Shown: positions 1 to 60,619, counted from the stretch's first letter. The stretch: DNA of 64,000 bases from Amoebophrya sp. A120 (GCA_905178155.1 CAJINV010000002.1:12285621-12349620); one strand, 5' to 3'. A program made the numbers and translations. The notes: a model not told the origin generated them from the sequence alone.

Positions 1-119
1 TAGGAGACCTTCTCAAAACCTGTCATGCTAGGGCGTGCATGGTATACCTTCTGGATCATGCCAAAGCTGCATCACAAACCTCTGCATTTTTCCAGACCCA
101 GACATTTTTACACTTGATA
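1..119. mobile_element. Introner family A, partial (right end only)
   Basis: Ends in ttccagacccagacatttttacacttgata, the family A TIR. Internal sequence matches the end of the 49848-50109 copy. Confidence 0.9.
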
Positions 120-3100
120 CGACGAGGCCGGCGGCAGTGGTTGCGCAGAAGACGCAGATGCCCCGGAGCCACTACCACTCGCTGCTGCTTGCGCAAATGG
201 TGCACTGCTCGACGAGGAAGAACTCGAAAGCGTTCCTTGTCCTTGCTGCAGCGCGCTGTTGCTGTTCACGAGCAGGTGAGCAGGTGTTGCAGAGTGCACT
301 ACGGTTCCTGCAGATGATATCATGCCACCGACAACCCCAGCTCCACCATCGTCAAAGGTAGACCCCGCCACACTGGTGCCTGTTGAGGATCGACCACTTG
401 GAACCATTCCTCCGCCGAGCGTTGCCGATTGGTGGGAAACAGACGCCGGTATGGCGGGAAAATTCACGTTACTTGCTGACGAGCTCACACCTCCCAATGG
501 CCCTCCACCGACCGTGGTGTTCACCGTCGTGCGAATGCCCTGAGAGGCGAGCGCTGGCGCAGCAAACGGGTCGACCGAATGCCGCAAAGCCATGCTCTGG
601 AGAGGACCGCCACTGGTAGTGATTTATTTTTCTTTTTGTGAATATCAATTTTTTTGAAAATTTATCACAGATCACAGATACATTCGTTGCTGGAGTAGTG
701 AACTCTTGTGGTACCGTGCGGTTGCCAGCGATGCTCGTATCATGGCGTCCTCTGCGTCACGCGTGGATCTTCGCAGTGGCTCCGATTGAACCATAAATGA
801 AGCGGAGTTATCGAGGACCGTGCTGCCCAAGTTGTCTCCACCCCCATGCTCCATGACCCCGTCGAGCATTGTAGCGGAACCCCCTGCGAGGGGTCCCCCG
901 CCAACTCCCCCCGGTTGCCCCGCCCCGGGTCCTCGCTGCGGCAAGCCGAGTCCGAGTTGCTGCTGGTGCATGGTATTCAACACCTCGGGTTCGGGTGTGG
1001 GGGCAATCTGGTGAAACTGTGAAATTCGGTACACGATCTGATTGTACGCGTCTGGATATTTTTTCTTGACAATGTTGTTCAACGCGTCCGCGGTCAACTT
1101 CTCGGCAACCGTGTAGGTCTGTGCGCGGACGTACGCCGTCCGCTTCTGCCCCTTCTGGACCAGCGCAGTCTCGCCAAAGTAATCACCTAGGTTTGTTCGT
1201 TCATGACTTGTTTTTCTGCTCACTGGTGGCGGGTTGGACAATCCTTCTGTATCGGTCCATACACACATTTCAAGTTAGGTTTATTGTAGGTTCTGTTTCA
1301 TATATTGTGCGTCGTGCGCAGCTGTGGCGGGAAAAATAGGTGTACGTGTATCTATAAACAGGGAATACTACACCACGCAAGTTCGTGCGATAAACATCGT
1401 ACGGTGGAGACAAGGAGTAACTTCTACTCTAACACCAACTCTTGGAAGGAATATTTTTAGCACAAGACCACGACCAGAAGCACCTTCTCTTTTCTGTGCG
1501 ACGACGAGCTTATTTCGTGCGGTGGGAATGCCATTGGGTCCCGGCATGGAGTTTCGCCGGATGACGACGACGTCACAGAGACCGCGCAGAATGAAGTACA
1601 TTTCGAAGCCCTCCTGCCCGAACCGAATGATGTAGTCCCCCGGGGAAAACACCTCCTCGGCAAAGTTGTCGAGAATTTCAGCGACTCCGGCGGGGTGCAA
1701 GTCGCGAAAAAAGGGCGCTTTTTCAATCAGCGAGGCGAAGAGGCAAATCTTGATTTCCAGCACCAGTGCCTTCGAACTCGTGTTGTAGAGCAGATCGCAG
1801 GCCTGTTTGTCGTGCTGGACCTCTAGAAACTGGTGGTACATATTGATCCGCTATCAAATGTAAAAATGTCTGAGTCTGGAAGATTGCCAGGTTTGTCATG
1901 CACATTTTGCATGACTCCTGATGTCTATGATGCATGCCCTAGCGTCACAGATTTTCTGAAGGCTTCCTAATGCCTATTCCGCATGACAAATGCTCTTTCC
2001 GTGTTGCAAAACTTGGACTCTCTTTGCTGCTCATGCAATACAGATTTTTTTAGAATCCAAAATCAGCATGACAAGTTAGATTCTTCCAGACCCAGACATT
2101 TTTACAGTTGATATCCGCTTGTGGAGATTGGGCGGAAGCTTAATCTGCGTATGGGGCTCTCAAACGTTACATTCTCAACTGTTACATGATTTGTCATGCA
2201 AAAACGCTATCACTTTTCATAATTTCAAACCTTCTCCGCATGACAAGTTCTCGACGCGCTAGATAGCATTGTAATCTGCTCCAAACCTGTAACGCAAAAG
2301 GAGCAAGCTTTTCCCTTTCACTTTTGCCATTCTTGCATTACAAATTTCATGTAACAGTTGAGAATGTAACAGTTGAGAGCTCCATACTGCGTCATGGCCG
2401 CGTTGATCGCTGCCTGTTGCTCCAAAGTTTTACCTCAAGTCAATTTAAAATATGTTAGCTATGGCTGTGTATTGCGTGACGTGGACGTGAGCCCGAAAAC
2501 GAAATCGCCTTTTTGCACATAAATTTGCATACTCATCAAGATGAATAAGAATACAAGACGAACCCTGGTGCACCAGGAGGTCCATGACTGAAAACAGCAA
2601 CGCAAGATCATGTACGCTGTACTTTTTAAAATCATCATCCGCTGCTCGATGAGCACGATGCGTGCGAAAATGACGGCTTCGGCGAAAGCTCCGATGGGCC
2701 GGAGCATGGTGATGCAAAGAACCACGCTGCTGTCGTCTCGATCTGTCATAGAAGTTGGAGGGGAAGCCGAGAACAGGAGTACTGCATCGCGCAGGGCCAG
2801 AATGTAGAACCTGTAGTTTTTATTATGGAGGAACTGAAGCTGCAACTAAGCTGATACACTGATAGCGATTGATAAAAAAGATAAAACCCTGTTCTGCTTT
2901 TTCGCACGCCCGATGTAGAGGATGAGCGATGAGAATGGCGTGGAGGACGAGGCTAGTACTAACAACATCTTCACAAGACGAGTTGCATTTCCAATGCGCC
3001 AGGCAATCAAGTAAGTACTGTCTGGTGCACCTCCTAATGATCCTGATTTAACCACGATTCACACATACTGAAATCAGGCTCAAGCACAGCCAGGTAAACA

Positions 3101-5728
3101 AGAACGACGAGTCAATACTTCCAGACGGATATGTGTTTGACATCCGCTTCGTAGGTGGTTTCCTGATCTGTGTCATAGAGGACGTAAAACCAGGCGACGG
3201 CAAACAGGTGCACAAGCAGAAACATCATGAAGACGAGCTCTGCGCCGGCCCACACGCCCTGGCGGTAGGGGCTGATGACGACCCCGCCCTGACTGGCGGC
3301 CGCGCGGTCCCGCCGCACCGTTTCGTACCGCAAAAGCCGTAGCAAACCAAACCAACTACAGGCAGTCCTGGTTGTCGTAAATTTGATGTTGAATCAAAGG
3401 AGCGGTTTAAAAGTCACTCTTGGGACGAAGTAGTCGTCGTATCTACAGGCCGACTCTGCAACGAAAACTGGAACAAGGGGAAGGGCAACATGTCAGGACC
3501 AACGAGCATAATTTTTCTTCAGGTTCAGTGTAATGGAGGTCCCAGCCCAACTCGTACTACGAATAGCACCTCCACCAGGCAACAGCATTTGTCTCTGCCT
3601 CACCTTTTTCCGGACTGGCTCATGGCATCCACCCAGAGGAGGTTTCCTAGTAGAGTCAGCCAGTTGGCCCAGTACGCCGTTTTGCGGAACAAAATGCGGC
3701 GGATGTCCGCTGGCTCCACGTATTCCCGGCCCTCCTGAATCTCCACGATGCTGGTCCGCAGGGGAAAGAGCAACTCGAAGATCACGAAGGCAAACTCGGC
3801 CACCATGTCGAACACGAAGACTTCTAAAAGGTTGTCCGACCATTTCTTGGTCTTGTCCCCCGCTAACGGGTAGAAAAACCCGAGGTAGAAGGTGGTAAAA
3901 ATCGCGTTGTACAGCATCAGAATGGAGCACAGCTTCCGGCCGAACAGCAGCAAGTCGGAGTGCCCCGCGCGCCAAAACACGGACAAATGCGTGGGCAGCT
4001 TGCCGTACAGCTGCGTGGCAGTGGGGTTCACGCTGTCGGTGTCGGTGTCGCGAATCTCAAACTGGTCGAAGGAAAACCGGCTGAACTCCACCACCGCGCC
4101 GAGGTCTATCGTCGTGCTGGCCCGGGCGTGGTGGCCAGTGGAGAGCGACATGCGGCGGCCGATCGCCGCGCGCGCGCCCGAGCCCCCGCCGGGCCCGCTG
4201 CCGTGGTGAGCGCCCGTGAGCTGGTTGATCCGGCCCATGCTGCCCGGGAACATGGAGATGGAGAAGCTGCGCTTCCGCCCGAGCGTGGGCGGCGCGGTAT
4301 GTATCTTGCCAACCGTCACATTTCCGTCCACTGGTATTGCAATCAAAAACGCCCCCACCCCCGAACGTGGAAGCATTTGTATTGCAAACCTTTCAAAGTG
4401 AAACACTCGCCCTTTTGCATCTCTCAGCATCACAGATTCCCGATCGTGAATAGCAAAAATTTGCATTGCAAAAGATCCCTCCAGCAAAAGCGGCGCTTGT
4501 CATGCAAGCGATGCGATACTTACACGCCTAGACTCTGCATCAGAAAGGTTCGCACTCCTTTCATGCATGACAAAAAGTTTTTATTTGGAAACTTCGCATC
4601 ACAAATTTTTGCAACTTTGCGGGTGGTGGCATTTTTCCTCGCGATAACTGGCGGGAACTGATCGTCCTCCTCCCCGGTTCCGTCCGTACTGGCCGTTTCG
4701 TGCGACACGATGCTCATCTTTCTGGACCTGTCGCCGCCGAAGGGCTCGGACTTGCTCGGGTCCACCCCGGTTTGCATTTGCTTCCCATTCAGCTGCTTGC
4801 TCATCGCGTTGCTCGCCCGTTTTTTCACCTGCCGCTTGCTGCAGTGGTGCAGGTCTGCGGAGGCCATCAGAAAATCCTCGGAGGAACTGCTGGTATTCGT
4901 CCGCGCGTCTTTCCGCGGGTCCTCAGCACTTGAGCTCGACGCCGCGCTTGTGTGCTGTGTGTGGTCCACCTGCTGTGCGGAGGAGCTACCACCGGCCTCG
5001 TCAGGATCGGTCTTTTTCTTGATGGTGATGCCCCCCTTCGAGGAAGATCTCGTTGATATTGCCTGACCAGCCGCTCCGCCCGCGGCGGCGTGACGCACTG
5101 AAGGTTCCACAGCCTCTTTTTCCATTTCGTTGTCAAAATCCTGCAACAAAGTCCTCCGGCCTTTCGTGTTGCTACTTTTATCTTCATGGTCGCGCGGATC
5201 TTTTCTGTGTCCGCCGGCACTCCCCGCTGGTAAAAACGGTGTTGCGTAGGAACAGCTTGCCTCGAGTCCCAAGTGCTTGTCAACTCCTGCGCCTTTTCCG
5301 ACTGCACGGGCTAATGTCGTACTAGCTGTACTCGCGCTGAAAGGTGTAACGGTCGCTGGACCAGGTGCATTTGCTCTACCTGCTGGTGCTCGATCTACTT
5401 CATCGGCGTTTGGATTTAAAAATCCTGTTTGTGTTTCCAGCCCGGTCGTGTTGTAATTCGAGCTGTTTGTTGCATTTCCATACTTGCGTGCTTCCTCGAC
5501 GACGACGCGGCCCGCTGGTCCTCGCGCTCCGGTTCCGACCCTACCGCCGGGTTGACGCTCTTCAATATCGTCCGCGCCCGCCTGGTGACGGAGCGGTGCA
5601 TGGGGAGATTGAAACCCACTGTCGGCATAATCATCTTCCGTCAGCGACACCTGGTCATCGTGTAGTACCTGGCCCCGTGGGGTTTCCCTTTTCTCGTTCT
5701 CGCCAACCCTCGTCTCGTCCCCGACCAT
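120..5728 (-). CDS. Cyclic-nucleotide-binding 6TM cation channel (CNG/HCN/EAG-like), multi-exon, 3' end outside the window
   Basis: Spliced exons give TM helices, S4-like WFGLLRLLR, C-linker TQIKLPPNLHKRINMYHQFL (only after introner removal) and a cNMP-binding domain (APFF...FSPGDYIIRFGQEGFEMYFILRG...GDYFGETAL...RTAYVRA). It has GT-AG introns plus 4 introners. Start codon is tentative. Confidence 0.85.
1852..2113. mobile_element. Introner family A (262 bp), non-canonical intron in the channel gene
   Basis: TIR tatcaaatgtaaaaatgtctgagtctggaag / cttccagacccagacatttttacagttgata. Direct repeat tccgc at 1847-1851 and 2114-2118. Removal gives in-frame LHKRINMYHQF. Confidence 0.95.
2150..2386. mobile_element. 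Introner family B (237 bp)
   Basis: About 40-bp TIR tatggggctctcaaacgttacattctcaactgttacatga. Direct repeat ctgcg at 2145-2149 and 2387-2391. Removal gives AAINAAMTQIKLP. Confidence 0.95.
4335..4646. mobile_element. Introner family G (312 bp), diverged TIR
   Basis: tattgcaatcaaaaacgcccccaccc versus reverse complement of the right end tatcgcgaggaaaaatgccaccaccc. Direct repeat actgg at 4330-4334 and 4647-4651. Removal joins ORFs 4520-5740 and 3600-4487 in frame (QFPPVDGNV). Confidence 0.88.
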
Positions 5729-7196: not shown

Positions 7197-9725
7197 CTAC
7201 CTAGAGCCAGAAGTGACTGTTGATGAAAGGTTCGCTTTCACTCGGTTGCGCAACTGCAGCTCCTCCGCCAACTCACGCAGCTGCCTCTCCCGGTCGTTTC
7301 GCGTGCCTAGCATCGACTCTGTGTGTCCGGGGACGGGCCCCGCACGGTAAATCAGATCAAAACCGCCGACCCGGGTGATCTGATCGTGGTAGTCCAGCGC
7401 GTTGCCATTTTCGTCTACCTGCGCCAAGTACTTCTCCAGATCCAGAATAGTCAGCACGTCGTCCAGTGTGGCGAACTTCATTTCGTAGTCCGCCTTCGTG
7501 TTGGCGGTCAAGGACGGGCTGGCGTTCACCTCAATCAAGGTGGGGTTAAAGTGCGAATCGATCATGATATCGTAGCCGTACATTTCGAAGCACTTGCGGT
7601 CTGCAATCATCACCCGCTGCACGGCCAGCAGACTGTAGATGATGATTTCCTCGAAACGATTGAAGAGGTCGATGGTGCGCTCACGGCCGATTTTGGAGAT
7701 CAAGTACTGCTTCATCCGCGGGATTTCCCACTTGCCGCCGGTGCGCTGGTAGGTGTTGTCCTTGGAGAAGAGGTTTTTCTGCACCGCCACGTTGGTCAGG
7801 TGCGAGGACAGCTTGGTCGGGTCCCGCACTGTGTCGACCGAGTATCGGGTCAGGGAAAACCGCGCGAACCCTTCTCGACTCAGCCACACGGTGAGCGGCT
7901 GGTAGGAGGTTACTAGTGCATAGATGCGCAAGTCAAACTTCCGCCCGCCGATCAGCAGCGGATTCTCGATGTACTTTTGCACGATGTAGGATTCCGCCGG
8001 CCCCTCGTCGGGGTCGAAATCGTTGCCACCCGCGCCCGCGCCGCCGTAGCCGCCATCGCCCCCGCCGCCGGCGCCGCCCCCGGTCGCGGGCTTCCAGTTC
8101 GCCAACTGGCTCAGCTTGGTGACCATGAAGATGCCAGTGCCCTGACTCCGGCCGACGGGCTTCATAATCCACACCTGCTTCCCGCACCGCCGAAACTCTT
8201 CGACGAACATGCTGTATTCCTGAGGCAGGAGAAACGTGATGGGTATCATCTCCTCGTACTTTCGGGCCGTTTCCAGTGACTGCGCGCTACCTTCCTTTTC
8301 CAACGCACGCTTGTGCCGCTTCACGTTCTTTGCTAAGAGGTCCTTGCGGGTCAGCTCGTAGTGGTTGCGAAAATGGTTCACGCGCTGCCAGGGCTCCAGG
8401 TGCAGCTTTTCCAGCTCCCCGTGAATCCAGTCCTTGTCTGCCCAGTGGATGTGCCAATCCTGCTTCAAGTGCTTCGTGCTCACCGCGCTGGTACCCGCAG
8501 GAGCAGCCACTGCACCTCCGCCAGCACTCGCGGATGTTGACGTGCCTGTCGCTCCTGTAACCGCAGAGCCACCACCGCTGGCAGTACTCGCAGGACCTCC
8601 CAGCTGTCTGGCACTTCCGGGCGGAGACGTCGTCGGGGGTGTGCTCGAAGAAGCAAGGAAAGAAATCGGTTGACCGCCCATACCAGATGCGCCGCTAGTA
8701 CCAGGTCGCGCAGATACAGATGAACCTCCTCCCTTCGTTGCGGCAGTAGGTGTTGTACCCGTTGTACTGCAGCTGGTGGCAACTACCCCCGGAATGCTGT
8801 CATTAGTCGTTGACGCAGACGCACCGGCACCAGATCCTATAGCAACGCCCCCAGAAGTGGACATTGTGGTTGTTGACGAAGCCGATTGCCCCGCTCTCCC
8901 GGTTGCACTCCCGCGGCGAGCGACGTTTGAACTCGACGCAGCAGCACCACCTCCTCCCGTTCCTCCGCCTTCCGTGCCGGCCGCGGCCGACGCAGACGAA
9001 ATCACGGACGCGCCGCTATCCTGAGTAAAAACGTACCCACACCAGAGTCAAGATGGGGAATCGGCTAGACAAATCCACAAGTTTTGGCTGTTTTGCATGA
9101 CAAATTTGGATTCGTAGTGTAGTGCTGTTTGAGCTAGCTCAGCAGCATGACAGATCTAGCATATCATGCTGATTGGAGCATGACAAATTGCAAAACACGA
9201 CTAGAAAACGCTTCTCATGGGGCTCCGCATGAGAAACATTTTCAGCATGCAGATTTGCATGACAACTATGGTGTGGGTACGTTTTTACTCAGGATAACCG
9301 CTGCGCGGGGTCCGCGGCGACGGCAGGTCATCGACGCCCCATTCCTTCCACCCCCGGCTCTTGAAAACGTCATTATGGAGAGAAAAAAGTTTGTCACAGT
9401 CATGTCACTAAGTTGCAGATTTTGCATTACAAATTTTTTTAGCATCACAGCTTCTCCTTGTATAATTGCAGAAACACTAGGGAAATCCCTTATGAAGTGT
9501 GGCTGTGATGCATTTTTACGCATGACAGACAATTTTGTATTGCAAAAACGCCCATTAGTGATCGTGACGAACTTTTTTCTTTTGATAGTCATAGATGGTG
9601 TTGTAGTGCGAGCTTCCCTCCCCCGTAACCGCGTCCGTGACGCGATGCAACTTGGCGCAACGAAATTTGATCTGTTGCCACGGCGCCGGATCCCGTTTAA
9701 TGATGCGGCGAAAATGCTCGGACAT
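7197..9725 (-). CDS. TTLL9: Tubulin polyglutamylase TTLL9-like (TTL family), 3 exons split by two introners
   Basis: Motifs IKFR...NTIYDVFKSRGW (restored by introner removal), HFRNHYELTRK, WIMKPVGRSQG, KFDLRIY, HLTNVAVQK, FEMYGYD and EVNASPS. Confidence 0.85.
9017..9296. mobile_element. Introner family C (280 bp)
   Basis: TIR tatcctgagtaaaaacgtacccacacca / tggtgtgggtacgtttttactcaggata. Flanks gccgc and accgc (4/5 match). Removal gives PRTPRSGASVIS. Confidence 0.93.
9374..9587. mobile_element. Introner family D (214 bp)
   Basis: TIR tatggagagaaaaaagtttgtcac / gtgacgaacttttttcttttgata. Direct repeat gtcat at 9369-9373 and 9588-9592. Removal gives NTIYDVFKSRGW. Confidence 0.92.
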
Positions 9726-40215: not shown

Positions 40216-42860
40216 CTACAGAAAGGCGACCCCGAGCGCGCTAGACGATTCGGGAGAAGCGCCCTGTTGCTCGCTTCCAGCCAGCGGTTTTCCGAAGATG
40301 TCCAGGGATTCCTTCTGCAATTTCAAAACCGCGTTGGCTGCTTCTCGTGCTTGCTTGGCAAAAAGATCGGCTCGCTGGGTATACTCTTCCGCACGAGCAT
40401 ATGCTCTTCGCGCCTTTTCCAGGTCCATATCGGCACGATCGAGAATGAGCTTCGCTGGCCGCGGGTCGTCCAGGGGGTCGTACTCTGTTCATTTGTGCAA
40501 GAACAACGGTTTCAAACTCAAACGTAAGTATGAAGAGAGACACCACAGCACATCAAATTCAGCCCTTAGCAGCGCGTATCTTGTAGTTATGGTGTGCAAG
40601 TTTCAGGATACTGTGCAGACTATTTTTTGGCGGTGAATGACCAAAAGCGCGGGAAGTCGCGTAGCTAGTGTGACATTCAAAATCGCTCATAGGCAACATC
40701 CTTTCTCGTCATACTATCTTTCTGAAACAAGAAATAGCAATACTCTCTGCGCCAATGACTCCCATGACTCGCCCGTTTATCGGGTATTTTTTCCGCATGA
40801 AAATCCAATCTCGGTCCTCGGCCGTGATCGGATCCTTCTGCGCCGGGATGAAGATGTCCATGGGGTATTTGTCCACTTCCGTGATACGCAGCAAACCAAC
40901 GGCGGCCTTGATAAGCTGCATCATCAGCGTTGCCGCCGCGGGCGTGAGCTCGCTGAGGAACCACATAAAAAAGTCCCAGATCTCGCTGAAGGCCTTGAAC
41001 AGCATCTCCAGAAGTTGGAACGGGTTTGGGAGATTGTCGAGAAACACCTTCAGTATCTTAAAGGTGGCTTTTACCATGGCAATCAGCTTCGGGACCAGGG
41101 CCAACAGCTCGCCAATTTTCTTGATCACCACCTATCCCACAGAAAATCACCCTGCTCACCCAAAACTTGTATTATGATGCGAACAGGCGCTGGTGCAAAA
41201 AAAAATTCGGCTGCAGTACCTCATGCAAAGCAATGCAACGGAAGCGGAACGTCGCTTCCGCGCTACTACTTCACTTCTTTGCCCTGTTTGCAACATCACA
41301 ATATCCGTCTATCATCATGAAGGTGAAGGTGCAGACTTCACTGAGGATATTGCCTGTGCGGTTTTGATACAGGAGCCGACCAGTTTAAAGAACTGGGTTA
41401 TCGATAGGTCGTATGTCATCGCGGGCTTCGTGCCCAACATCAGTTTCCAGGGCTGGTAGATGAACGGCCGCACGTTCTCGAGCTTGGAAAGCTCCGCGGG
41501 TTTCAGGATGTGATGGTCGAAACGTGGTCCCGTTGGGTCAAAAATGGACTTCAGGTTCTTGATCTGGTCCAAAAAGTTCGAGGTGTCGGTCAGCATCCCG
41601 CTCCCGGCGCCCGCCAGGCCGCTCAAGGAATCGGCACCACCGTGTATGCCGTTCGTGATCGCGCTGCCCATGTCCACGCCCAGCGACTCGCCCGCGACCA
41701 TCCCCACGGTGGACGCAGACGCCCCGCCCGTCGCCCCGGCAGCGTATCAACTGTAAAAATGTCTGGGTCTGGAAGAATTCATGTTTGTCATGCTTGTCTG
41801 GCATGACTCTTAACTCTGTCATGCACGTTACCCAAGAGCTCCGTTTTTCTGTGATGCAGAGGCGCAGTTTGTCATGCAGAATAGGCAACACCTAGAAGCT
41901 CAGAAACTTGTCATGCTGAGCCAGCATTTGTAGCCTCATCATGAGACGCCACCCAGCATCACAAGTTCCCAGACCCAGACATTTTTACTTTTGATACAGC
42001 GAGAGTGAAGCCGACGAGGGGGGCCAGGTTCTTCGCACCCCCCTATCGAAAGGAAAAATCCCCCCTCCCCATATCAAACCGGAAATTTGTGATGCTGATT
42101 TGTGACCACAAATCAGCTTTGTCTTGCAGTATAGGAGTGCAGGCAGATACAAAGCCTGGAAGGGGCTGGCTAGAGGTGGGCGCCCAGCATGGCAGACGTC
42201 TGCCCTGTTGGTGCAGCAGCATGACAAATCGCCTGCGCAAAGCGGCGAAAGCTCTGGCTTTGCTCTCTTGCAAGACAAACCTGATTTGTGACCACAAATC
42301 AGCAACACAAATTTTCAAAAGGATGCCTTTTCGATATGGGGAGGGGGGATTTTTCCTTTTGATACCCCCGCAGCGTCCTTCATCGGCAGTTGCTTCTGTA
42401 AGGCCTGGCCGGCTTGCTGCAGCGGGGCGGGCAGGGCGGCCATCACGTCCGGACCAAAGCCGTCTTCCATCACGGAGGGCGGCGAAACGGAAAAATTTTG
42501 CGGCTTCAGCAAAGACATCGGGTCAAAGCCTTTGAAAAAGTCCATGGCCTCACTCAGCACAAAACTCGTCGTGGAGAGTCGCTGTGGTCGTTGCCTGGTG
42601 GTGGTTATTCTACCCGCAAGAGGTGGGGCCGGAAAAGAGGAGGACGAACTCGAGCTCGACGGGCATTGTCGTGTGGCATGACGAACACTTGTCGCACGCT
42701 TGTGCGAAATTGATGGGGTCGTGGGAGAGGAAAAGAAGCTCGAGAACAACGATGTCGCAGACGAGCCACCGTCGTCGCAGCTGGTTGTATCCTCGCCGTA
42801 CAAATGATCTGGAACGCCACTACCGCCTGGCCCCGAGATCAGAAACCGCGAGAGCACCAT
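40216..42860 (-). CDS. Hypothetical protein with amphipathic/hydrophobic helices, multi-exon
   Basis: ORFs 42315-42860, micro-exon 41997-42043 and 41315-41707 join in frame after removing two introners. Further ORFs at 40709-41131 and 40216-40428 are probably downstream exons. Confidence 0.6.
41745..41996. mobile_element. Introner family A variant (252 bp)
   Basis: Family A TIR. Direct repeat cagcg at 41740-41744 and 41997-42001. In-frame removal gives FTLAAGATGG. Confidence 0.94.
42044..42364. mobile_element. Introner family E (321 bp)
   Basis: About 35-bp TIR tatcgaaaggaaaaatcccccctccccatatc. Direct repeat ccccc. In-frame removal gives KDAAGGAKNL. Confidence 0.93.
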
Positions 42861-45374: not shown

Positions 45375-48300
45375 TTAGGATTGGAAGTACTGGTAGTCGA
45401 GGATGAAGCTCCAGAACTTGTAGTTTCCGGTGGGTAGGGGCTGAAAGACCGGGATTTCAACCAACCCGAAGCGGGTTTTCATCGCATCCACACCGTCCGT
45501 GCCCAGAGCGACGAAGGCCGTTCCGGCTCCGTAGATGATCTGAATGGCAGCGATGACCAGCAGGACCCAGTGAAAGATGCGTTCGCCAAGCGATCGCTCC
45601 GTCTTGTAGACGACGGCGTAAGCGAGGAGCGGGTAGGGAACCTTCACATTTATGTATTTTTACGGTAAACTCGTGTCTAGTATGGGCGGTATCGACAACA
45701 AGTTCCATCTGTAGAACTATTTTCATATTGATCAAGCTGCAATCCAATGGCGAGTACATCACACAATTATTATGAAGAACTGCGAGTCACCTGCCCAATA
45801 TGCAACCAAACCTAGCACGAACTTCGCGAAAAGTTAGAAGAGTACCTAGCTCTGATTCGCTATTTTTGGTCCTATGTAGTAAACGCAAAAACTCAGAAAA
45901 AGTACCTGAGTCAAAACACAGCCGAATGCCGCGACGAGATCGACGAGCTGGCCGAAAAAGGGAACGACCCACACGATCAGGGCGGCCATCCAGATGATTA
46001 GGGTACGGCAGACCTTCGATTTTCCCGGGGGCACGTCCTCCACGGTTTTTACCTTTGCGAACTTCATTTCCAGGTGCAGCAGCGTGCTGTTCATGATCAG
46101 GGCGAAGGAAATGAACACGTTAACCACGATCATCAGTGCGACCGTGATCCCCTGCCAGGAGGCGGCGTTTCTGTGGTTCGCCGGGTTCACAAAGTCGTGT
46201 CGCATGGAGTCTACGATACTGCTGTCAATCGCGGAGCCGTAGGTGAGGTAGCCGCAGATGCCGACCACGAAGTAGATGAACGCAATGGTGAAGGAGGACA
46301 TGAGGATGGAGCTGACAATGGTGCTGGGTTCGACCATGCTGGTGTACAGCGCGGGGATCATCATGACGAAGGTGAAACTGAAGAACACTTTGTTGACGGG
46401 GGCGACGATCCAGGACAGACTGGCGATGGTGGAGGACCAGCCAGAAATATTTTCGGTTCGCGAAGCGGGGAAAACCAGTTGGTTGGTGATCGGGAGATCC
46501 AGGAGAATTCCGTCCGCACTCTCGTTGACGACGCCCGCGGTCGTTGACGCGCTCGAGAAGTATGCGGGATACTGTTGTCGCCAGCTTGCTGTGTCATCCG
46601 CGGTGTAGGCCTCCGCGCACAGAACCTTTCTCGGCTTTTGGGTGGCTTGTGACTTGCTGTCGAGGTCCGGAACGATGTAGGTGAAGTGCAGTGTTTCGAA
46701 CGGTGCGGTCGTGGCGTCGGACTTGTATTCCAGCGTGCATCGGTTGTTGGCGCGGTCGACCCCGATGGCGGTCGGACCTGGAACGATGTCCTGCGGCAGC
46801 CGTTTTGCCGCGCTGCTCATGATCTGCAGCGCGTCCCGCTTGCCGTTCGCCGTGGACAGTGCGCGTTCCCGGGTCACCTCCTGCCAGGACAGGGTGTCGC
46901 GCTCGTCCGCCGACAGGGAGTCGTGAAAGTGTCGCAGCTTCTCCGTCAGGCCGGCCACCTTGATCGTCAGCAGCTCCACGTCAGCGGGCAATGCGTCAGC
47001 CCTGCTCGCGGCGGCGCACAACTCCTGATATTTGGCGCGGTCAGATTCCGCCTTCTTCCGGTCCTCATCACTGACAGTGGTTGTGTCGGTGTTTTTCGGG
47101 AGGGCGGGGTACCGCCAGTAATACAACGCGTAGTTGTCCATGCGCGTCAGCCAGCACCCATCAACGCCCTCCTGCGCCGCGCACACGAGCTCATTTTCTG
47201 GCGTTGCCGGATTGAGGCAGGCCTGCTCGATCTCCTTCAGCAGGGTGTAATCCGCGGCGACGGTGCCGTCTGGCCGCGTGTACTGGTAGGAAAGCTTGTT
47301 GCGCACAAATTCGGGCGGGGAAACCTCCTGACTTAAGTCCAGCGCACTCACGACTGGCAGCTTCTGCTTGGTGTCTGAAACTGCCACACGTTGCATGCGC
47401 CACTCGACCGGGCGGTCTTGCATAATCAGGTAGGAATTAAACTCGTTGCCGTTCGCTTTCGCGTTCCTCTCGCAGAAGTCCGCGTCCACGTCCAGCGTTT
47501 CGGGGATCGCGCCTGTAGTAGAGGTCAAAATAAAGTTGTGCGATGCTTGACCTTGCTCCTAACTGCAAAAGCCGTTTTATATATAAACCATCTTTACTAG
47601 AGAGCGAGAAACACAAACCAAAGTCGAAATTCGACAACTACAAAGTAGAAATACAGAAACTCCTCGACAACAAGAACAACAGAAAAATAATCGCTTGAAT
47701 ACTTCCATCCGTCGGCTTCTGAACGGCGACGCGTAAATATTCAAGAAAACCCTGCCACTCCGTTCTTCCGCTGTCCGCTTTTCGTGAGGTGTACCAGCTA
47801 AATTCACAGGCCTTCTCGCCATTCGTCTCAAAGTAGTAGGAGTCTCGCTCGTCCGGAAATGTGTCCCAGCGGAAAACCTCGCCGGCAATCCCGGTGCCAG
47901 AGAGCTCCACGACGGCGTCCTTCAGCAGGGTTATCCTTCTCGCCGACACGCTGGGCATGGTTATGGCGTTCTCAAACGTTACATTCTCAACTGTTACATG
48001 AATTTGTCGTGCAAAACTACCTTGAGCCGGTAGATGATCAAGCTGCTTCGCATGACAAATCTCCGAAGGGCTAAACAGCACCTAAATCGGTGCCAAATCT
48101 GTGATGCGAAAGCAGCAATTTTTGCACCTTTGACTGTTGCGGCTCTTGCATCGCAAATTCATATAACAGTTGAGAATGTAACGTTTGAGAACGCCATAAT
48201 GGTGTCGGGCGGGTTCTGCGTCAAGTCCCGGTGATACCACTGTCCGGAAATCCAGGCGACTGGGGTGTAAAACGCGGCCTCCGTGGCGGGGAATTTGTGC

Positions 48301-50575
48301 TCCTCTACGACGGTGCCATCCGCGTTACCGCCGGTCGAAAACGCCAAGGTCGCTTCGCCCCGCACGCCCTTTCCGGTGTCGCTCATTTTCACCAGTTCCA
48401 CCTTTCCGCTGTCCGTGAGCAGGCAGCTTTGGCCGTATTCACAGCTTCGGTAGGGGGCCCACTTCGGGAAGTCGAGGTACTCGTTGTTCACGTCGAAGGG
48501 CTGGGCTTTCATGTCCAGGACAAATTTCCCGCCCGCGGGCTGGTTTGCATCCTGGCTTACGGTTTGCAGTTTCCTGCCACTACTGATGTCCGGGTTCTCG
48601 CTGACGCCACGCGCACTGTCGGTACCCACCTCAGTGAGGCCCGTTCGTCCAAAGTAGTCGTTCACCTCGCCTTGCTGCGGACCAGCGAACAGCTTCAACA
48701 AGGAAGCAGACTCGGTGTAGGCAGGACCGTTGAAAGCGACCACTGTGAAAAGGAGTTAGTGTTTGGTGTATATTTATTTTTCCGGCAAATGCTAAACATG
48801 TCTTGTCTATAAGCAGCAAGGTCTCAGAACGCAGGAGAATCTGAATCAGGAACAGGAAGAGAGCGTGATTATTGAAAGTGAAAGTATACCGTACGTAAGC
48901 AAAATCATATTTTCGTGGCACAAAAGAAAACAATACTGGCATCATCTCCGGTCTTAGCTGGATTCAGGATGGAGTTGAGCGCAACCACCAAAATGACCAC
49001 GATGCAGCTGAGCCATGCTACAAAGGACACCCGCGCGAGCACGGACACGTCCCTCAACCAGCACAGGAAGGTAAGAATCAGGGCCACCGTCACAATCCAA
49101 CCGTTCTTCGTCAGAGCCGGAATGTAGTCGAACAGAATCACGAAGTTCATGGCCAGCAGCAGCATGAACACCGTTCCGACCAGAATAATGAAGGTATGGT
49201 AGAACTTGGAGTAGACTGTGATGCAAATTTATTTCGTAACATTTTATGAATTTATGTGTTTGAGGAAAAGCATAGCTGTACTTGTAGTACAACAATATCG
49301 GTACAAAAATGTATGAGCCTCAGCGTCCTTGCAGTAGTCAAAGTCAAATTTCGAACGTGAATGGAGATGAAAATCATAAAAGTTCAGTACCAGCCGCCCA
49401 GCACTTTCCGAACAGGACCTTTGTTAAAGATCCCATCTGCGACATATCCTCTTGATCGACATTCAGGTCTTCAATACGCTGCATCACTTGTGCCTTTTTT
49501 ATTGCCGCCACGATGGATGCAGCAGTGCAGCTGTCATATTTTTTCATTTGCATTTTATCAAGTTACTGATGTAATTTGATCGGCATTTGCAAAACGTTCA
49601 ACATCATTAAGTTTCTGCTGAAGATGGACATCACGAGGCCACGCAAAGACGAAGACTTTCTTGTTAGAGCGCTCCGAGGTGAAGCAGTAGGTGCAAAAAA
49701 ACATGTTCAAGTTCATCATCAAAAGAAAAAGATTTGCAGTTCCAGCACTGCAGCAAAAGTTGCAAATACAAGGCCAGGATGAAGATCGCTGGGACGTAAC
49801 CCGTGGACTGGAAAACGCTTGGAAGGGTAACGATACCGGCCCCGATGTATCAAATGTAAAAATGTCTGGGTCTGGAAGAATGCAACTTGTGATGCTGCGT
49901 TTCGATGACTAAAAAATTTGTGTTGCATGAGCAGCAAACAGAGTCTAATTTTTACTACGCGGAGAGGGCATTTGTCATGCGGAATGGGCATCAAGAATCC
50001 CTCAAAAAACCTGTGATGCTAGGGCATGCATTACAGGCATCATGGGTCATGAGAAATATGCATGACAAGTGTTGCATTCTTCCAGACCCAGACATTTTTA
50101 CATTTGATACGATGGCCGTTGTGACGATGGAAAAGATGGACTCCCACCAGGTCGTAGTCCTTCCGAATCCCGCGCCTGGGTCGGAAAGGGACCCCCTTGA
50201 TATCATATGCAAAAATGTCTGGGTCTGGAAGAATGCAACTTGTCATGCTATATCTGAAGCATGCAAAAATCTGTGTTGCATGATTACCAAAAGTCGTCCA
50301 GTTTTGGACAAGTCGGGAGGGAGTTTCTCATGCAGGATAGGCATGAGAGAGATCGCACAGAATCTGTCATGCTAGGTCCTGCATTCCAGGCTTCATGGGT
50401 CATGGAAAAGCTGCATGACAAATCGCGCATTCTTCCAGACCCAGACACTTTTACATTTGATACTTGACCTTGAGGAACCATCGCTGTCGCTCTCCGCATG
50501 GGACTGCAGAATGCTTTTGTGGCTTTTATACGAAATCCGGCTCAGCCCCGAGGGCGGGATCAGCGGTGCCGTTTC
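45375..50575 (-). CDS. Amino acid/auxin permease (Aa_trans, SLC36/38-like) with a large loop insertion; first exon not located
   Basis: TM1 motif SIFSIVTTAIGAGIVTLP (restored by introner removal), LCWLRDVSVLARVS, FSFTFVMMIP...M..P, VGICGYLTYG and VPFFGQLVDLVAAF. N-terminal ETAPLI fits an acidic dileucine sorting motif. Confidence 0.85.
47962..48198. mobile_element. Introner family B (237 bp)
   Basis: 45-bp TIR with 1 mismatch (tatggcgttctcaaacgttacattctcaactgtta[c/t]atgaatttg). Direct repeat atggt. In-frame removal gives PPDTMPSVS. Confidence 0.96.
49848..50109. mobile_element. Introner family A (262 bp)
   Basis: TIR tatcaaatgtaaaaatgtctgggtctggaagaatgcaac. Direct repeat cgatg. Splits the TAIGAG motif. 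Confidence 0.96.
50201..50462. mobile_element. Introner family A (262 bp)
   Basis: Family A TIR. Direct repeat cttga at 50196-50200 and 50463-50467. In-frame removal gives GSSRSRGSLS. Confidence 0.95.
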
Positions 50576-54462: not shown

Positions 54463-54680
54463 TGCCGAGAACTTGCCGAAAACTTTCCCCCGAACTTTCC
54501 CGAAAAGTCGGCGAAAGCCTTCCGCGAAACCTTCCCGAAAAATTCTCCCGTTGAAAAGTCGACCAAAAGTTACAGACCGGGAGTTGAAAAGTCAGCCAAA
54601 AGTTTTCGAGTCCGAAAATGATCCCGAAGCGGGAAAGTTTCGGGAAAGTTCGGGGGAAAGTTTTCGGCAAGTTTTCGGCA
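54463..54680. repeat. 43-bp inverted repeat built from ~11-bp ccgaaaacttt-like units
   Basis: 54463-54505 versus the reverse complement of 54638-54680 has 1 mismatch. Confidence 0.9.
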
Positions 54681-56207
54681 CTCAAGCAGAAGACTTCGCC
54701 GCGCCCTCAAAAGCCGAAAAGCCTGAAGGCTTGCGCATCCGCCAGGCTTGCGAAGAATCCTGCTGCCCCCCCCCTTTTCTACATGGCTGAGGCGGTCTCC
54801 CCGAAAATGGGGACAGAGCCTCCTGGGCGAACTTATTGCGCGCGCCGGCGGGGCAGCATGTGAGTGGCGCCCCGCGCGCGCCCCTGCTGCGCCGGCGCCC
54901 TTTCTACTCGCGAAAAGCCGGCCGCGCAAGGCCGCCGCGACCGAGGCGGAGCACTCGGGAGCGGCGGCATGGTCTCGGCGCTTTGTATGTAAGTGCGGGG
55001 GGGCGGCGAATATGAAAGAGAAAGGGGCAGGCCGGACGGCCTCTAGCTAGCGCCCAAAGAAAGGCGCCGAGCCAAAACGTGAGGCGCGGGCAGCTCCACC
55101 GAAGCGTAGCGCGCCACGCCATGCGGCCCGAACGTGCGAGGCCGGGCCGCCCGCGCGGCGTGCTGCGCGCCTACTTCAATGCGCCAAATATGGCCGCCGG
55201 GGCGGAGATAATGAGGCCGGCGCCGCTTCTTTGCCCGCCGACCTTGGCCCACACCACTTTTTTGCTTTTTCTGGGCCCGCCGTGCCGGGGTGGGTAAGGT
55301 TATGCCGCACGGTATGGCGGCCGGTTGGGGAAAATGGCAGACGTTGGGCAACTTGCCAAAACGCCTTCCCGAAAGCCAACCCCGATGCTATCGGGCCGGC
55401 CCGGGCACCGCGGGGGGCGCCCAAAAACCGAGGGAAAAGCGGGCCCATAGAATGCGGGCTGGCTTCGCGCGCTTGGCGCGTTTCTTCTTTTTTGCGTTGT
55501 GTGTTATTTTTCGCGCCCGCGCCTTTTGCAAAGCTAGCGCCCCCCCGCTGAGAACCCGGCAAAAGGGCGGCCGCTTTCGATTCGCGACCGGTTTCGCGGC
55601 CCTGCCATACTTACGGCTTCGCTGTTCTGGCTTCGGGCGGGTTTTTTGGGGCGCCCTTTTGGGCGCCCCAAGTCGCGCGCCAGAATCCCACGCGGCCGGC
55701 GCCTGAGAAGGGTGCCACGTTTGCCGACCCCCCTACGTCATTTTTTCAGACAGTCTTTCCACCGGCGGCCGACTGAGCCCACCGGCGACTGCATTCATTG
55801 AAGACAAAACCAAACAGGCGGGCGCGCTTGGGTTTTTTTCATCTTCAACATGCGAAAAAATGCGAGCCAACGCCCCAAGCCCCCGGCCGTTTTTGGCGGT
55901 TCTTGTCAGGAAAGCTGCAGAGATAGAGCCGGCTCACGGGGTCGCTGCGGTACATCTTACAAGAGAAGGCAAACCACCCAGGCACACAGGCTCGTGCTGG
56001 AGGGCAACATACCAGAGGGGCCACGGGGCCCCGCCCGCCGGCTCGCTTGTGGGGCGGGCCACCCGGGGGAGTTGCGTTATCCATTTCCTGAACCAAAGAA
56101 CACCCCGCCGGGGAAGCCCACCCAACCGGGGGGGGTCGGCCCCACATCGCGATGCATGCCGCACGCACGGACGGCCTGGCGCGAGAGGCCGGCCCACCAT
56201 CGCGCGC

Positions 56208-56243
56208 CATACCATGCGGTCCGACGTCGGACCGCATGGTATG
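56208..56243. repeat. Perfect 36-bp palindrome (related copy at 53502-53529)
   Basis: cataccatgcggtccgac|gtcggaccgcatggtatg. Confidence 0.95.
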
Positions 56244-57698
56244 CTGCCTCTTTGCTTCTCTCGTTCAAGCAGGCGAAGCAGAATAGACGGGCAACCGAAA
56301 TAGACAGGTGGCGCCACCACAGCGCGCCACAGACCCACATCACGCGCCGGCCATCGGGGTGGCCCCCCGACCGCAGGCCCTTGACACTTCTGCCACCGCT
56401 AGCGAGACGAGCGGAGGAGCCGCCTCTGCCCGTTGGTTGCAAAAGGGGGGCGCCTTTGGCGCACGCTTCGGCCGCGTCGCGTAACCGCGGAAAGGCGGGC
56501 AGGAAACAGACGGCCGGGGCGCGACGGCCTCTATTTTGTAAGAATGGGCAAGCGGCGGGCCAGAATGTAGGGGGCCGAAGGTACGTCGGACAGCGCGCGG
56601 CCGGCGTGCCATCCAAGACACCGCGGCGGGGCGGCGCGCCCATTCGGGCCCTGGCAGTGGCAGCCAGTGCCATTGCTTATTTAAAAGGCGCTCAGGGCGA
56701 AGAGGGCCGACGCGCCCCGGCATTTCCGAAGCGCGAGGCGGCGATCAACATCCGGGCGAATACTGAAAGGCCAAAGGCCAGCGCCCGCGCACCACTTCAA
56801 AAGGTGCACAAAATGCGCACAGGGCCCCACAGCGCTCGCGAATAATCGCGAACAACCGACCACGGAGGCGCTGCCCGTCCGATGCGCGGCGGGTGGCATT
56901 TCCCGCAGCCTGCTTGGAGGCGTCGATCAAAATGGCAGGCAGCTGGCGGGCACACGCCGCGGCGAAGAGGTGCCGCCCTTTCATGCTCTGCCACTCCCAA
57001 AGTGCGGACTTACCAGCAAAAGGCAGCACGGTCCAAACAATTGTCGCAAAGCATGGATTGCCGACGATCAAAATAGCGACTTTGCCAAAAGTCAAAGTAA
57101 AAGTTTTGGAAAAGTCGCTATCCCGTTTCAATTACCCGTTTTCCCTTGTAAAAGCTTGTTGCCTGTAATACTTCACCTCCCTCCAGTAGCAGCGTCTGAA
57201 GTCTTTACTTGTACTGGGCAATACCAGACAAGAACAAATGGGCAAATTTTGATTACGACCACTGTAGCTTCACACTGGTCGACGCGAAGTCATTGCAAGC
57301 GCTCGTCCTCTCCTGAACCAGCCTAATCAACTTGCACCTCCTTTCTTTCAGATGATCATGATTCAAATCCAGTAGTGCGTCGTTTAAATCGCGCTAATTC
57401 AAAGATACAAGCGCACGGCACGCGTTTGAAGCATCATGAACAACAACTTCAATTTCAATTGCTGTCACCGTCGTGCGGCATTAATGATGGGCGTTTCAGG
57501 CGAAAATGCGACAGGGCGAGTCATTGTCTCCTTACCCGTAGTTTAGTCGGTTTTTTTTTCCGCTTTGCGCCTGTCGTGCACTGGAATTGCTCCCAGGAAC
57601 TCTGACTCTGTAGGGATCGCCCCAGGTAGCGGAAAGAACAAACCAAACGAAACTTACAGTCAATCACAGGGATCACAGGAAAGCAGAAGCTTTTGAGT

Positions 57699-60619
57699 TC
57701 ATGTGTCTTTGTTATCCTGCTCCACCAATAGCGCCAGAATATCGTCCCATCTCTCGTCGTATCCGGCCTGTTGAAAGTGCGCGATGTACCGCGATCGGAT
57801 CAAGCGATCCACTGCTGCGGGCTGCTCCAGGACATCTTTGAAAACGCGTCTCTCGATGATCCGCATCACGTCGGCAAGGCACAGCGTGTTTCCGGTTAGC
57901 AGCTGCAAGGAGTCCAACACGCGGAGTATCCTGAGTAAAAACGTACCCACGCCCGAGTTGTAATGCAGATTTGCAAAGACAGGAAGACTTGTAATGCGCA
58001 TCCCCATGAGAGCCATTTCCAGTCGTGTTTTGGAATTTGTGATGCTGTGAACAGGATGAGCAGACGAATCTGTGATGCGGCTGCACTTGCTAACCTGCAC
58101 TACACTGCATAGTGCAACTTGTCATGCGTGACTCCCAAAACTCCTAGGTTTGTGTTGCAAAATCCCCATCTTGACTATGGGGTGGGGACGTTTTTATACA
58201 GGATACGGAGAATGTCCACGTGCGGCGTTACCGGCTTCGGACCTCTGCCTTGGGCTGGTCTTGCTATCCTGTGCAAAAGTATCGTAACGTACTCGTATGG
58301 AAATCATGCATTACAAAATCCTTTGTTAAGGTAAATCAGCATTACAAATTTTATTTCTCATGCTGAGGAAATTTGTAATGCATTTATACGAGTACGATAC
58401 TTTTGCAGTTCATACTTGCGCCCGCAACACCATGCGTTTTTGATCGCGAATCCACGACTCGTTGTCCCCCTCCTGGCGAGCTGCAAGAACCTGCAACACC
58501 CCCAGATGTGGATCCTGCGGAATTACTCTGGGATGAATGTTGCTTGATTGCATTGCACAAGATCCAACTCTGTCCGGAGACAGACAACAGTTCCTGCTTT
58601 CCACGGGCTGCAAATGCGTCAAACGTTTTCTGATACTTCTTGGACACAGAAGAGTCATTGGTCTGCCCAGCGTGAGCAGGGCTCTGCAGGCTTTCCTCAG
58701 TTGTAGTTTCGTTCCGACGGGAAGTGGTTGGAGACATGGAAGAACCGCAAGAAGCCCCCACGATCTCCTGACTGCGGGCCCTTTGCTCGCGTTCCGCAAG
58801 CTCCTGCGACATGCCGCGAGTGTACAACAGGGCCGTCGAGTTCAGGAGCTTTGCAAGCTCCGCCGCCGGGAAGTTGCTGTGTGGACTGTTGCTCCCGGCG
58901 CACTGACTATCCATCTCCTGCAGCACACGATTTGCGAACACCGCCAGGTCGTGCAACGGAAAAGCTATTTCCCATCGACTGAAGACAACCAAAACCGCCG
59001 TCAAGTCCTTCAGCTCGAACAGATGCAGCGAGCTCAGAGAGTACTTGCGAATCTTCGCGTATAGGGAGCGGAGGAGAGAAAGCTTCTGCTCTACCTTCGT
59101 GCTTGAAGTGGAAGGATTTTGTGCGTTGCAGCTGACCACTGCAACATGTTGACCAGTGTCTACAACTTTGCGAAGCCCGGTTTCGTCAACATTGCTCCTA
59201 GAAGTGCTGCCCGTCTGACTAATGTTGTCTGGACTAGGCGAGGAAGAGGTTGATGTCGTCTGCGCAGTGTTCGCGAGCATTTGCGTTTGCTCCAGTCTCT
59301 GCGCTACGGCCCGATAGTACTCCAGCAGCATGCCGAAGGCGTATGCTACCGTTGAGAGCTCAGCGGGGGTGTTGAACAGAAGTTTCTCGCCGGCGCTGCT
59401 TACGCAATACCGTACGAATTGTTCCTCGTCCATGCCGCACCGTGCGAACGAGTGGATCACGCGGGCAATTTCAAGTGGCGTTGCCTGTTTTAGGTTTTAG
59501 CGTGTACCAGAAGTAGTCGGCTCGAGTGACGAAGTTTTGGTTATGGTTCCCCTTCATCACTCCAATCGGAATATATTAAAAAAAAACCGTACTCTATACA
59601 ATTGCAAAGACGTATAGGAGTTGTATGTCGACAAAAGCAAAGCATCAAGCTTAAACTCGTGACGACCCAACAACATCACAAACGGGTTCGGCTGTTTTAC
59701 CTCGCCGATTGTGAACTTGGCGTGGTAGGCAATGCTCTCAAAGAGTCTCTTGTCCTGCACTACAGCGGCGTCCGCAAAAGCTTTCGCGATGACGGACAGG
59801 TCGCGGATGTGAAACGGCTCCACTTGCATGCGGGTTTGCAAATGCGTGGAAAGCCTTTTCCACAGTTCGTCGTCATTCAGTTCAAGCTTTGTAATTGCGT
59901 TAATGAACATGGTTTGCTCCGTGGTCTGTTGCAAGTCCGGCACCTGTGATGTTTTTTGTGTTGAGGGTTGATGCAGCAGCAGTGCAGGCAGTCTTGGCTG
60001 AGTCTCAATTTTGGCCACTACAAGTACCAACCAGCGTAGCTGGCCCACATAGGAAGCATAATCAACAGTGGGTCATATAATCAGTATGATCTTCTTCATG
60101 TTCTATTATACCCGTATTTTCAACTCCTTAACCATGACCAGCCGCTCGGATTCTGTCAGTTTCAGGCCGCATTTTCCGAACGCCGATAGCATCATGGCCA
60201 GATAGGTCGCATTGAAGTACGCGATCTTCTCGAAGAAGAGCTTGCGAATCTCGCCCTCGGGCCCGACAATCATCGGCAAATACCGTTTATCAAATGCAAA
60301 AATGTCTGGGTCTGGAAAAGTGTAAACTTGTCATGCAGGTTTTTCATGACCCATGAGGTCTGGAATGCGGGACCCAGCATGACAGAGTCTGCGAGGTCTC
60401 TGCCATGCCTATCCTGCATGAGAAACTCCCTCCAAACTTGGTCTAAAGTGGACAGCTTTTGGCACTCATGCAACACAGATTTCTGCATCGTTCGGATTTA
60501 GCATGACAAGTTGCAATCTTCCAGACCCAGACACTTTTGCAATCCATACCGTTGCCGAAGCGGAACCTGCCGCGAGGCGGACGACGAGGAAGATCCGCCT
60601 CCACCGCTCTGGGATTGTC
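57699..60619 (-). CDS. Helical-repeat protein (HPR/OPR/FASTK-like, probable organellar RNA binding); 5' exon(s) not located
   Basis: Repeats such as FNATYLAMMLSAFGKCG, FHIRDLSVIAKAFADA, TPLEIARVIHSFARCG, TPAELSTVAYAFG and FELKDLTAVLVVFSRW. Three introners are removed in frame. Confidence 0.65.
57927..58205. mobile_element. Introner family C (279 bp), inverted relative to the 9017 copy
   Basis: TIR tatcctgagtaaaaacgtaccc / gggacgtttttatacaggata. Direct repeat cggag. Removal gives VDILRVLDSL. Confidence 0.94.
58265..58414. mobile_element. Introner family F (150 bp), inverted relative to the 15731 copy
   Basis: tatcctgtgcaaaagtatcgta / tacgatacttttgcagttcata. Direct repeat cttgc. Removal gives VAGARPAQG. 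Confidence 0.92.
60288..60548. mobile_element. Introner family A (261 bp)
   Basis: Family A TIR. Direct repeat ccgtt at 60283-60287 and 60549-60553. Reverse-complement homolog of 50201-50462. Removal gives PLRQRYLPM. Confidence 0.94.

Follow-up and report, generated by a model that had tools for sequence, protein, structure and literature searches.

How can introners with apparently unrelated ends occur in large numbers in one genome and nevertheless be lifted exactly out of gene products? This question is posed by a 64,000-nt stretch of DNA from Amoebophrya sp. A120 (GCA_905178155.1, CAJINV010000002.1:12285621-12349620), here termed the window, in which genes are interrupted by short elements with terminal inverted repeats (TIRs). 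Judged by ends that fit the published description, these are the already known A120 introners, of which ~29,850 in 1,954 families have been reported, with no known transposase or splicing route (PMC7789003). Farhat et al. (2021) describe the ends and direct repeats of introners and rule out general mobilisation by transposase (PMC7789003). The published elements are like those in the window in their TAT start, seven variable bases, run of at least three A, inverted repeats with 3-5 nt direct repeats at the exon border, and as non-canonical introns of ~240 nt, while the published text, as far as its accessible parts go, mentions no shared internal motif or spacing rule (PMC7789003). An initial annotation of the window proposed that introner families with unrelated TIRs all carry one internal motif, GCAT(G/C/T)ACA(A/G), in both orientations, serving either as a binding site for a common trans-acting factor or as internal stems that fold the intron. 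We find that this motif is specific to the elements, obeys a spacing rule that is new here, and is more strongly constrained on the branches that left descendants, and we favor the view that it provides the double-stranded DNA binding sites of one transposase, probably of the integrase type, that is shared by all families.

A spaced internal motif specific to introners

The exact motif, GCATBACAR, occurs 55 times in the window (27 on the + strand, 28 on the − strand), where 3.79 are expected by chance and the maximum over 100 dinucleotide shuffles is 7. Elements were called from their TAT...ATA ends, the complementarity of these ends and the flanking repeats, with no use of the motif, which yielded 14 full elements (150-321 bp) and one cut by the window start (1-119). 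Together they span 3,598 bases and contain 52 of the 55 exact sites, with two to six in each full element; when the 14 elements are shuffled (500 shuffles) 0.5 sites are found, compared with 50 observed. The three sites outside elements, in 25,150 GC-matched non-element bases, are at background level. Seven annotated GT-AG introns (1,515 nt, GC 31-48%), defined by the A120-labelled annotated proteins that show element removal, contain no site where 21.9 would be expected at the element rate, and therefore the motif cannot be said to be as frequent in canonical introns as in elements. The idea that the three outside sites are branch-point markers of canonical introns failed on these same introns. 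The motif is thus real and specific to the elements, as the initial annotation had it, and the six intervals cited there (1852-2113, 2150-2386, 4335-4646, 9017-9296, 9374-9587, and 15731-15880) are all TAT...ATA elements with three or four exact sites each.

The same holds outside the window. Scanning with a class A end retrieved 151 metagenome loci totalling 256 kb, none with a long match to the window; these yielded 208 further elements once two of 210 spans, composites containing other calls, had been dropped. An exact site is present in 204 of the 208, and in 75 of the 78 that do not belong to class A, the bait family. Among 978 distinct locus sites, 631 are in called elements, 295 are at most 350 nt inside an element end and 24 are at locus edges, leaving 28 elsewhere in 84,849 bases. 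De novo, the motif accounts for the top class-weighted 7- and 8-mers; tolerated variation consists largely of A at base 4 and of G at base 7 or base 6, and the extended consensus is approximately yyyw-GCAWBACAR-ATT. A further upstream extension (T-G-S-A at -10) was rejected, as it looks like a degenerate opposed site and not like part of a 22-bp site.

By means of hand-made patterns the 222 elements fall into 13 TIR classes, with four elements of more than 400 bp left out of the motif statistics. They have the features of miniature inverted-repeat transposable elements, being short (class medians 112-329 bp, overall 109-350 bp), non-coding, TIR-bearing, present in many dispersed copies, and flanked by a target site duplication (TSD) of fixed length. 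Of the 137 class A copies, which were called without reference to the TSD, 119 have an exact 5-bp duplication and none has one of 6-8 bp, and the duplicated targets are 59% GC. All ends begin TAT[C/G], of which TAT was required by the caller, and most carry A at positions 11-15 (67-91%, class-weighted), with deviations from this A-run in classes B, G, and J. Classes A and D have identical terminal 10-mers. With the motif masked, alignments are recovered between classes F and G (z = 7), H and I (z = 15), E and H (z = 7), and I and Q (z = 7), with B-C borderline, which reduces the 13 classes to about nine lineages. Sharing of the motif is therefore partly a matter of descent, the TIRs are less unrelated than originally described, and the introners are best seen as one superfamily. 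The motif is indeed found in all classes, whereas its presence in both orientations does not extend to two of them, classes C and K being essentially single-orientation (exact sites both ways in 0/14 class C copies, 4/14 at one mismatch, and in 0/3 class K copies). Searches with the TIR patterns gave no match in the viral contigs or prokaryote genomes searched, and Rfam gave no hits. Between close copies, end positions 4-10 were also observed to diverge at roughly twice the spacer rate (0.165 vs 0.072), with a small set of variants common to classes A and D, a pattern that suggests end swapping or conversion between elements.

The arrangement of the sites follows a rule. Same-direction sites are 30-33 bp apart in 12 of the 13 class consensuses and in eight of the nine lineages, whose spacers cannot be aligned, and 13 of the 20 same-direction spacings of up to 70 bp fall in this range. 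Random placement gives a mean of 1.57 lineages and a maximum of 6 in 5,000, and eight lineages were reached in none of 1,000 trials that allowed any 4-bp window. Opposed sites prefer separations of ~16, 34, and 46-50 bp, with 20-28 and 41-43 bp nearly empty. Motif spacing is a discrete geometry, near three helical turns for the same-direction pairs; simple 10.5-bp phasing is excluded by the empty spacings near 21, 42, and 52 bp.

DNA signal or RNA signal

At all 14 sites the minus-strand frame is open once the element and five bases are excised, and seven of the 14 are removed in exactly this way in the annotated proteins P0002, P0121, and P0122, the evidence for removal being protein annotation and not RNA reads. 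Gene strand is confidently assigned for 61 of 218 elements (the classifier called the element at 47962 plus, where the window context suggests minus), and these have 102 sense and 96 antisense sites, with 15 and 20 class A insertions in the two directions. Even with a relaxed pattern, four of the 61 have no sense copy at all, including the class C element 9017-9296, which has only antisense copies; the class C element at 57927 has only sense copies, and both are removed in annotated proteins.

This bears on the proposal, which we regard as improbable, that the motif is a sense-strand RNA signal, either branch point-like with a T-N-A-C core or the site of an RNA-binding protein, that is present on both strands to suit either direction of insertion. 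The motif core does contain TNAC, which is the core of the branch-point consensus, and for 38 of 57 elements the distance between the last sense copy and the 3′ end is 34-46 nt. This peak, however, mirrors the symmetric outward-pointing sites, and the motif is absent from the seven canonical introns as well as, in sense, from an element that is nevertheless removed. Of the two forms of common trans-acting factor that were initially envisaged, subterminal sites of a transposase fit best, given the indifference to strand, the fixed spacing and selection mainly on lineages that continued to transpose, and a sense-strand RNA-binding factor is disfavored.

It is very improbable that opposed copies are internal stems that fold the intron for excision. 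Folding predicts, with a probability above 0.5, that 30 of 67 sites in the window and 78 of 235 in the loci pair with another motif copy, and class A sites are mirrored ~41 nt inside either end, but any inverted copies inside a hairpin will yield predicted pairing. None of eight opposed class A pairs agrees above chance at the variable fifth base (z ≤ 0.8), so that the covariation sought is not seen, and for the mirror pair agreement is 27% compared with 45% by chance. Such stems are also impossible in the single-orientation classes C and K, and the dominant spacing rule concerns same-direction pairs. What pairs in nearly every element is the TIR (median 0.94), and even here the two ends show no better-than-chance match over bases 4-10 in the four classes tested, so that the outermost stem shows no tuning toward pairing. 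Because of the indifference to strand, the two single-orientation classes and the lack of covariation, both types of RNA signal are unlikely and the motif appears to behave as a double-stranded DNA signal.

Timing of selection and the candidate factor

When the motif is under selection can be judged from a tree of 137 class A copies, in which 30 core columns were compared with 144 spacer columns. Core changes number 104 on tips and 19 on inner branches, and spacer changes 1,220 and 740, giving core/spacer rates of 0.41 on tips and 0.12 on inner branches (p = 2e-7). Trees built from other columns give tip/inner ratios of 0.40/0.11 and 0.37/0.14, and inclusion of a weak sixth class A site, left out of the main test, gives 133 tip and 39 inner changes. 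All branches represent time as a resident intron and a pure need for splicing would therefore constrain tips and inner branches alike, but only inner branches have passed the filter of transposing again, and as the core is far more constrained on these, the contrast points to selection at transposition. On tips the core changes at 0.025 per site, which equals the TSD mismatch rate (17/670, omitting three of 137 copies with a TSD identity of 2 or less), and core change is essentially independent of tip length (rho 0.06), as is expected if sites decay from the last insertion onward. Similarly, 23 copies with decayed TIRs, collected with motif-neutral profiles, have changes at 54/523 core positions (10.3%), compared with 190/1,431 in conserved spacer (13.3%) and 69/507 in the TIR (13.6%), and copies in coding context lose the core almost as fast as others (22/1,110 vs 82/3,000, p = 0.22).

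These rates are hard to reconcile with the motif being a functionless relic of one ancestral element with a 31-bp repeat that gave rise to all families. Several classes are in fact related with the motif masked (F-G, H-I, E-H, and I-Q) and TAT ends are common to all, but class A spacers differ by a median of 46% where the core is 0-9% off consensus in most columns, and a mutation cold spot would give equal ratios on tips and inner branches. This proposal is largely refuted by the inner-branch core rate and we give it little credence.

We therefore consider it probable that the internal array consists of double-stranded DNA binding sites for one transposase that serves all families, for which the common 5-bp TSD and the terminal 10-mers shared by classes A and D also count. 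Element anatomy, the specificity and spacing of the motif, its indifference to strand and its stronger constraint on ancestral branches are observed; that a protein binds the motif, that it is a single protein, a transposase rather than a host helper, and integrase-like, is in each case inferred. Protomers would bind four to six internal sites of an element, and the permitted spacings (30-33 bp in the same direction; ~16, 34, and 47-49 bp opposed) would set the geometry of a nucleoprotein complex that joins the two TAT ends. The target duplication would then arise from attack on GC-rich exon DNA with a 5-bp stagger. Divergence of inner TIRs and spacers would be unconstrained, which could give a single system the appearance of many unrelated families. 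Once inserted, an element would lose its sites at about the TSD rate, and removal from RNA is likely to be a separate process that uses the paired ends.

Several observations weigh against this view. The tip/inner contrast has a p of 3.5e-4 against a constant-rate simulation and of 0.01 against the 30 slowest spacer columns, the spacers are themselves tip-poor relative to the constant-rate simulation, and assembly errors and segregating mild mutations could also load the tips, on which it bears that the closest class A pair differs by only 0.9%. Class B is the one lineage without a 30-33 bp pair and has alternating sites 46-49 bp apart instead. The array has a repeated site, constrained spacing and selection for transposition, but not a fixed distance from the end to the first site: the outermost sites are 31-57 bp from the ends, point in or out, and are followed by others through the whole element, where Tn7-type ends are described as having a tight end-to-site distance (PMC10201428). 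The nine lineages may have deep ancestry in common, in which case the 31-bp pair could have been inherited as a single module. No transposase is found by Pfam among 15 window open reading frames (ORFs), no stop-free stretch of more than 118 codons is present in five long elements, and a cognate autonomous element with the shared ends is found in neither (~0.3 Mb examined); Farhat et al. likewise report no transposase in A120 (PMC7789003). Finally, several very old copies whose TIRs are gone retain perfect pairs at a spacing of 31-34 bp, which would not be predicted if the motif served transposition alone. Copies with decayed ends that keep perfect sites or pairs are L027:1584-1736, L048:~2516-2665, L060:~2360-2508, L017:1827-2005, and the window at 60647/60679.

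The old copies also bear on a different proposal, unlikely in our view, in which a host or domesticated transposase-derived DNA-binding protein marks the element for excision from RNA without normal splice signals, and has at most a secondary or shared part in transposition. Such a mark would account for the exact removal of seven of the 14 window elements although their borders vary, in an organism in which U1 is reported missing (PMC7789003), and a host factor, for which IHF is a precedent (PMC10201428), would explain how one motif can lie beneath many inner TIRs. All 137 class A copies retain at least two strong sites. The mark would, however, predict equal constraint per unit of time on tips and inner branches, which is not seen; copies confidently in coding context would not be expected to lose the core almost as fast as the rest, nor TIR-decayed copies to lose it near the spacer rate, with the caveat that redundancy of sites could hide weak selection. 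The end-decayed copies came to light by way of the motif, in an inspection of 18 outlying sites or clusters, and are therefore no proof of retention, but they do keep this proposal alive. TGCATGCA is a site of ApiAP2-type factors, and a host factor of this kind was considered solely as a candidate. The end-decayed copies at L027, L048, and L060 are apparent old introners of ~150 nt that have lost their TIRs and kept motif pairs 33 bp apart; across the three the borders are GT-AG or AT-AG, and L027 and L048 now read as GT-AG introns, which is a possible route from introner to ordinary intron.

Window features, related systems and secondary inserts

The features of the window are collected in Table 1. 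Its TTLL9-like ORF has 100% identity to an A120-labelled protein and 75% to an A25-labelled one, and excision of the elements at 9017 and 9374 gives a match at 418 of 418 residues. Two further A120-labelled proteins excise the elements at 1852, 2150, 57927, 58265, and 60288 in the same manner; window proteins are 99-100% identical to A120-labelled ones, with residues 1-190 of P0121 falling outside the window.

Table 1. Introners and motif sites along the window. Exact sites are given by first position and strand.
Position	Feature	Exact sites	Remarks
1..119	class A element, right part, cut by window start	20(−), 69(+)	P0122 exon ends at 120
1852..2113	class A introner	1893(−), 1981(+), 2066(+)	5-bp TSD; in minus-strand cNMP-domain gene; P0122 removes element + 5 nt
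2150..2386	class B introner	2191(−), 2238(+), 2335(+)	P0122 removes element + 5 nt
4335..4646	class L introner	4427(+), 4497(−), 4565(+), 4596(+)	31-bp pair; removal restores frame
9017..9296	class C introner	9095, 9145, 9178, 9257 (all +)	TSD 4/5; removed in annotated TTLL9 protein P0002
9374..9587	class E introner	9424(+), 9442(+), 9503(−), 9520(+)	interrupts conserved TTLL9 N-terminus; empty site spanned by A25 orthologue P0001 and by P0006
15731..15880	class D introner	15765(+), 15799(−), 15830(−)	31-bp pair
41745..41996	class A introner	41785, 41816, 41849, 41869, 41908 (−); 41956 (+)	six exact sites
42044..42364	class F introner	42087(−), 42219(+)	four further one-mismatch sites in 32-bp pairs
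47962..48198	class B introner	48050(+), 48099(−)	
49216..49224	lone exact site	(−)	no element; overlaps apparent AG acceptor; background level
49848..50109	class A introner	49887, 49972, 50011 (−); 50028, 50060 (+)	
50201..50462	class A introner	50240, 50364 (−); 50413 (+)	
57927..58205	class C introner, opposite orientation to 9017	five, all −	all mRNA sense; removed in P0121
58265..58414	class D introner	58308(+), 58339(+), 58373(−)	31-bp pair; removed in P0121
60288..60548	class A introner	60328(−), 60377(+), 60501(+)	removed in P0121
60621..60763	possible old decayed element	60679	32-bp same-direction pair with 60647 (one mismatch); 5-nt direct repeat, no TIR left; just past annotated AG acceptor
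61460..61468	lone exact site	(−)	no element; background level

For the possible old element at 60621..60763 the evidence is weak, since shifting the removal opens the upstream frame as well in one case out of three. Most of the long ORFs examined are on the minus strand, like the co-oriented gene blocks reported for Amoebophrya, and Pfam matches in window ORFs are TTL, an amino-acid transporter and Methyltransf_24, with weak ones to a sulfotransferase and the Nup98 autopeptidase. A homologue, P0123, has both TTL and cNMP domains and matches both neighboring window genes (3603-4334 and 7212-7568), and may reflect gene-model fusion in a related genome. The 26 kb at 15881-41744 have neither introner nor exact motif and contain long minus-strand ORFs (768-1,484 codons), with dense clusters of introners elsewhere. 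Two GC-rich regions (52100-57100 and 62200-63900, 58-66% GC) have no Rfam hits and no motif. A nearly perfect palindrome of 34-36 nt lies at 53502 and 56208, units of 11-12 nt form an inverted array at 54441-54680, and a hairpin of 49 nt occupies 62959-63061, all likewise lacking the motif.

Arrays of multiple transposase sites are familiar from Mu and from the subterminal TnpA sites of En/Spm. In the ends of Tn7/CAST elements several spaced TnsB sites build the transpososome, which a host factor can join (PMC10201428). These arrays likewise have repeated transposase sites, asymmetric between left and right, in which spacing matters and single-site mutations are tolerated, but in the introners sites fill the whole element, in either direction and at a variable distance from the ends, inner TIRs differ, and the element is removed from mRNA. 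Closer to hand is fam38, a TIR family with integrase-like ORFs, a 5-bp TSD and TA/TA termini that is listed as Ginger (Gozashti et al., 2025; PMC12130899). It has the TSD, termini and organism label of the elements here, from which, compared by description only, it differs in its length of ~810 bp, its Copia/Gypsy integrase-like ORFs and its TIRs of 49-53 bp, those here being 109-350 bp and non-coding (PMC12130899). Among integrase-type DNA transposons, IS3EU/GingerRoot elements resemble the introners in their TA...TA termini and Ginger2 in its 4-5 bp TSD, GC-rich target duplications are a further likeness, and the accessible parts of these reports mention no internal site array (PMC10045372, PMC6839031, PMC12730594). 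The introners are not filed with IS3EU/GingerRoot because those make 6-bp duplications; GingerRoot TIRs are moreover 100-150 bp, and Ginger ends are TG...CA. The non-conventional introns of Euglena are also hairpin-forming, flanked by TSDs and without GT-AG, with the machinery of their removal not known (PMC12501133, PMC11282704), but the Euglena code consists of short CDG/CHG signatures that pair next to the intron borders, whereas the signal here is internal, repeated and not selected for pairing. The motif gave no hits in 12 of 14 supplement files searched, and the one paper with both "Amoebophrya" and the motif has the latter only in a primer. No report of a shared, spaced internal code was found in the literature texts and supplements searched, which did not extend to figures, two supplement files or Roy et al. 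(2023).

The motif is also where other sequences are found inserted. All five inspected elements of more than 400 bp have a secondary insert at a motif. Those at L007:1491-2745, L048:1805-2435, and L047:571-1051 are retro-like inserts in class A elements, each with a duplication (21, 13, and 8 bp, respectively) that starts at motif base 2, for which a rough, post hoc chance is 3e-5, and those in L007 and L048 show 70% similarity across 249 nt and have a 3′ end in common. They are possibly a target-specific retroelement for which introners are a safe haven; the geometry suits target-primed reverse transcription and recalls the insertion of Tx1L in the DNA transposon Tx1D (PMC1950540). Further inserts or breaks at or beside a motif (L075:1491-2462; L025:1804-2260; L050 and L058, both minus, from 1491; and L026 from 1916 onward) comprise a poly(A)-tailed insert whose duplication spans the motif, an (ATG)n-tailed insert within a site, and three truncations beside sites. 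A perfect hairpin at L010:969-1020 has two opposed perfect sites as its arms, and no element ends are close to it. A broader and decidedly doubtful reading is that one DNA-binding protein reads the code in tens of thousands of introners, mobilises them and flags them on DNA, in either orientation, for precise U1-independent removal, the code being in addition the haven of a retroelement that inserts at the second base and is spliced out with its host.

That one internal site recurs under a spacing rule suggests that the 1,954 families are one system with one trans factor. The 31-bp site pair would then be a bait for that factor, and the motif a signature by which to look for the autonomous element and for old decayed copies, while the number of intact sites per copy is a variable to set against RNA-seq for a role in excision. 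The shared spaced code makes the two open questions about A120 introners, their transposase and their splicing route, testable.

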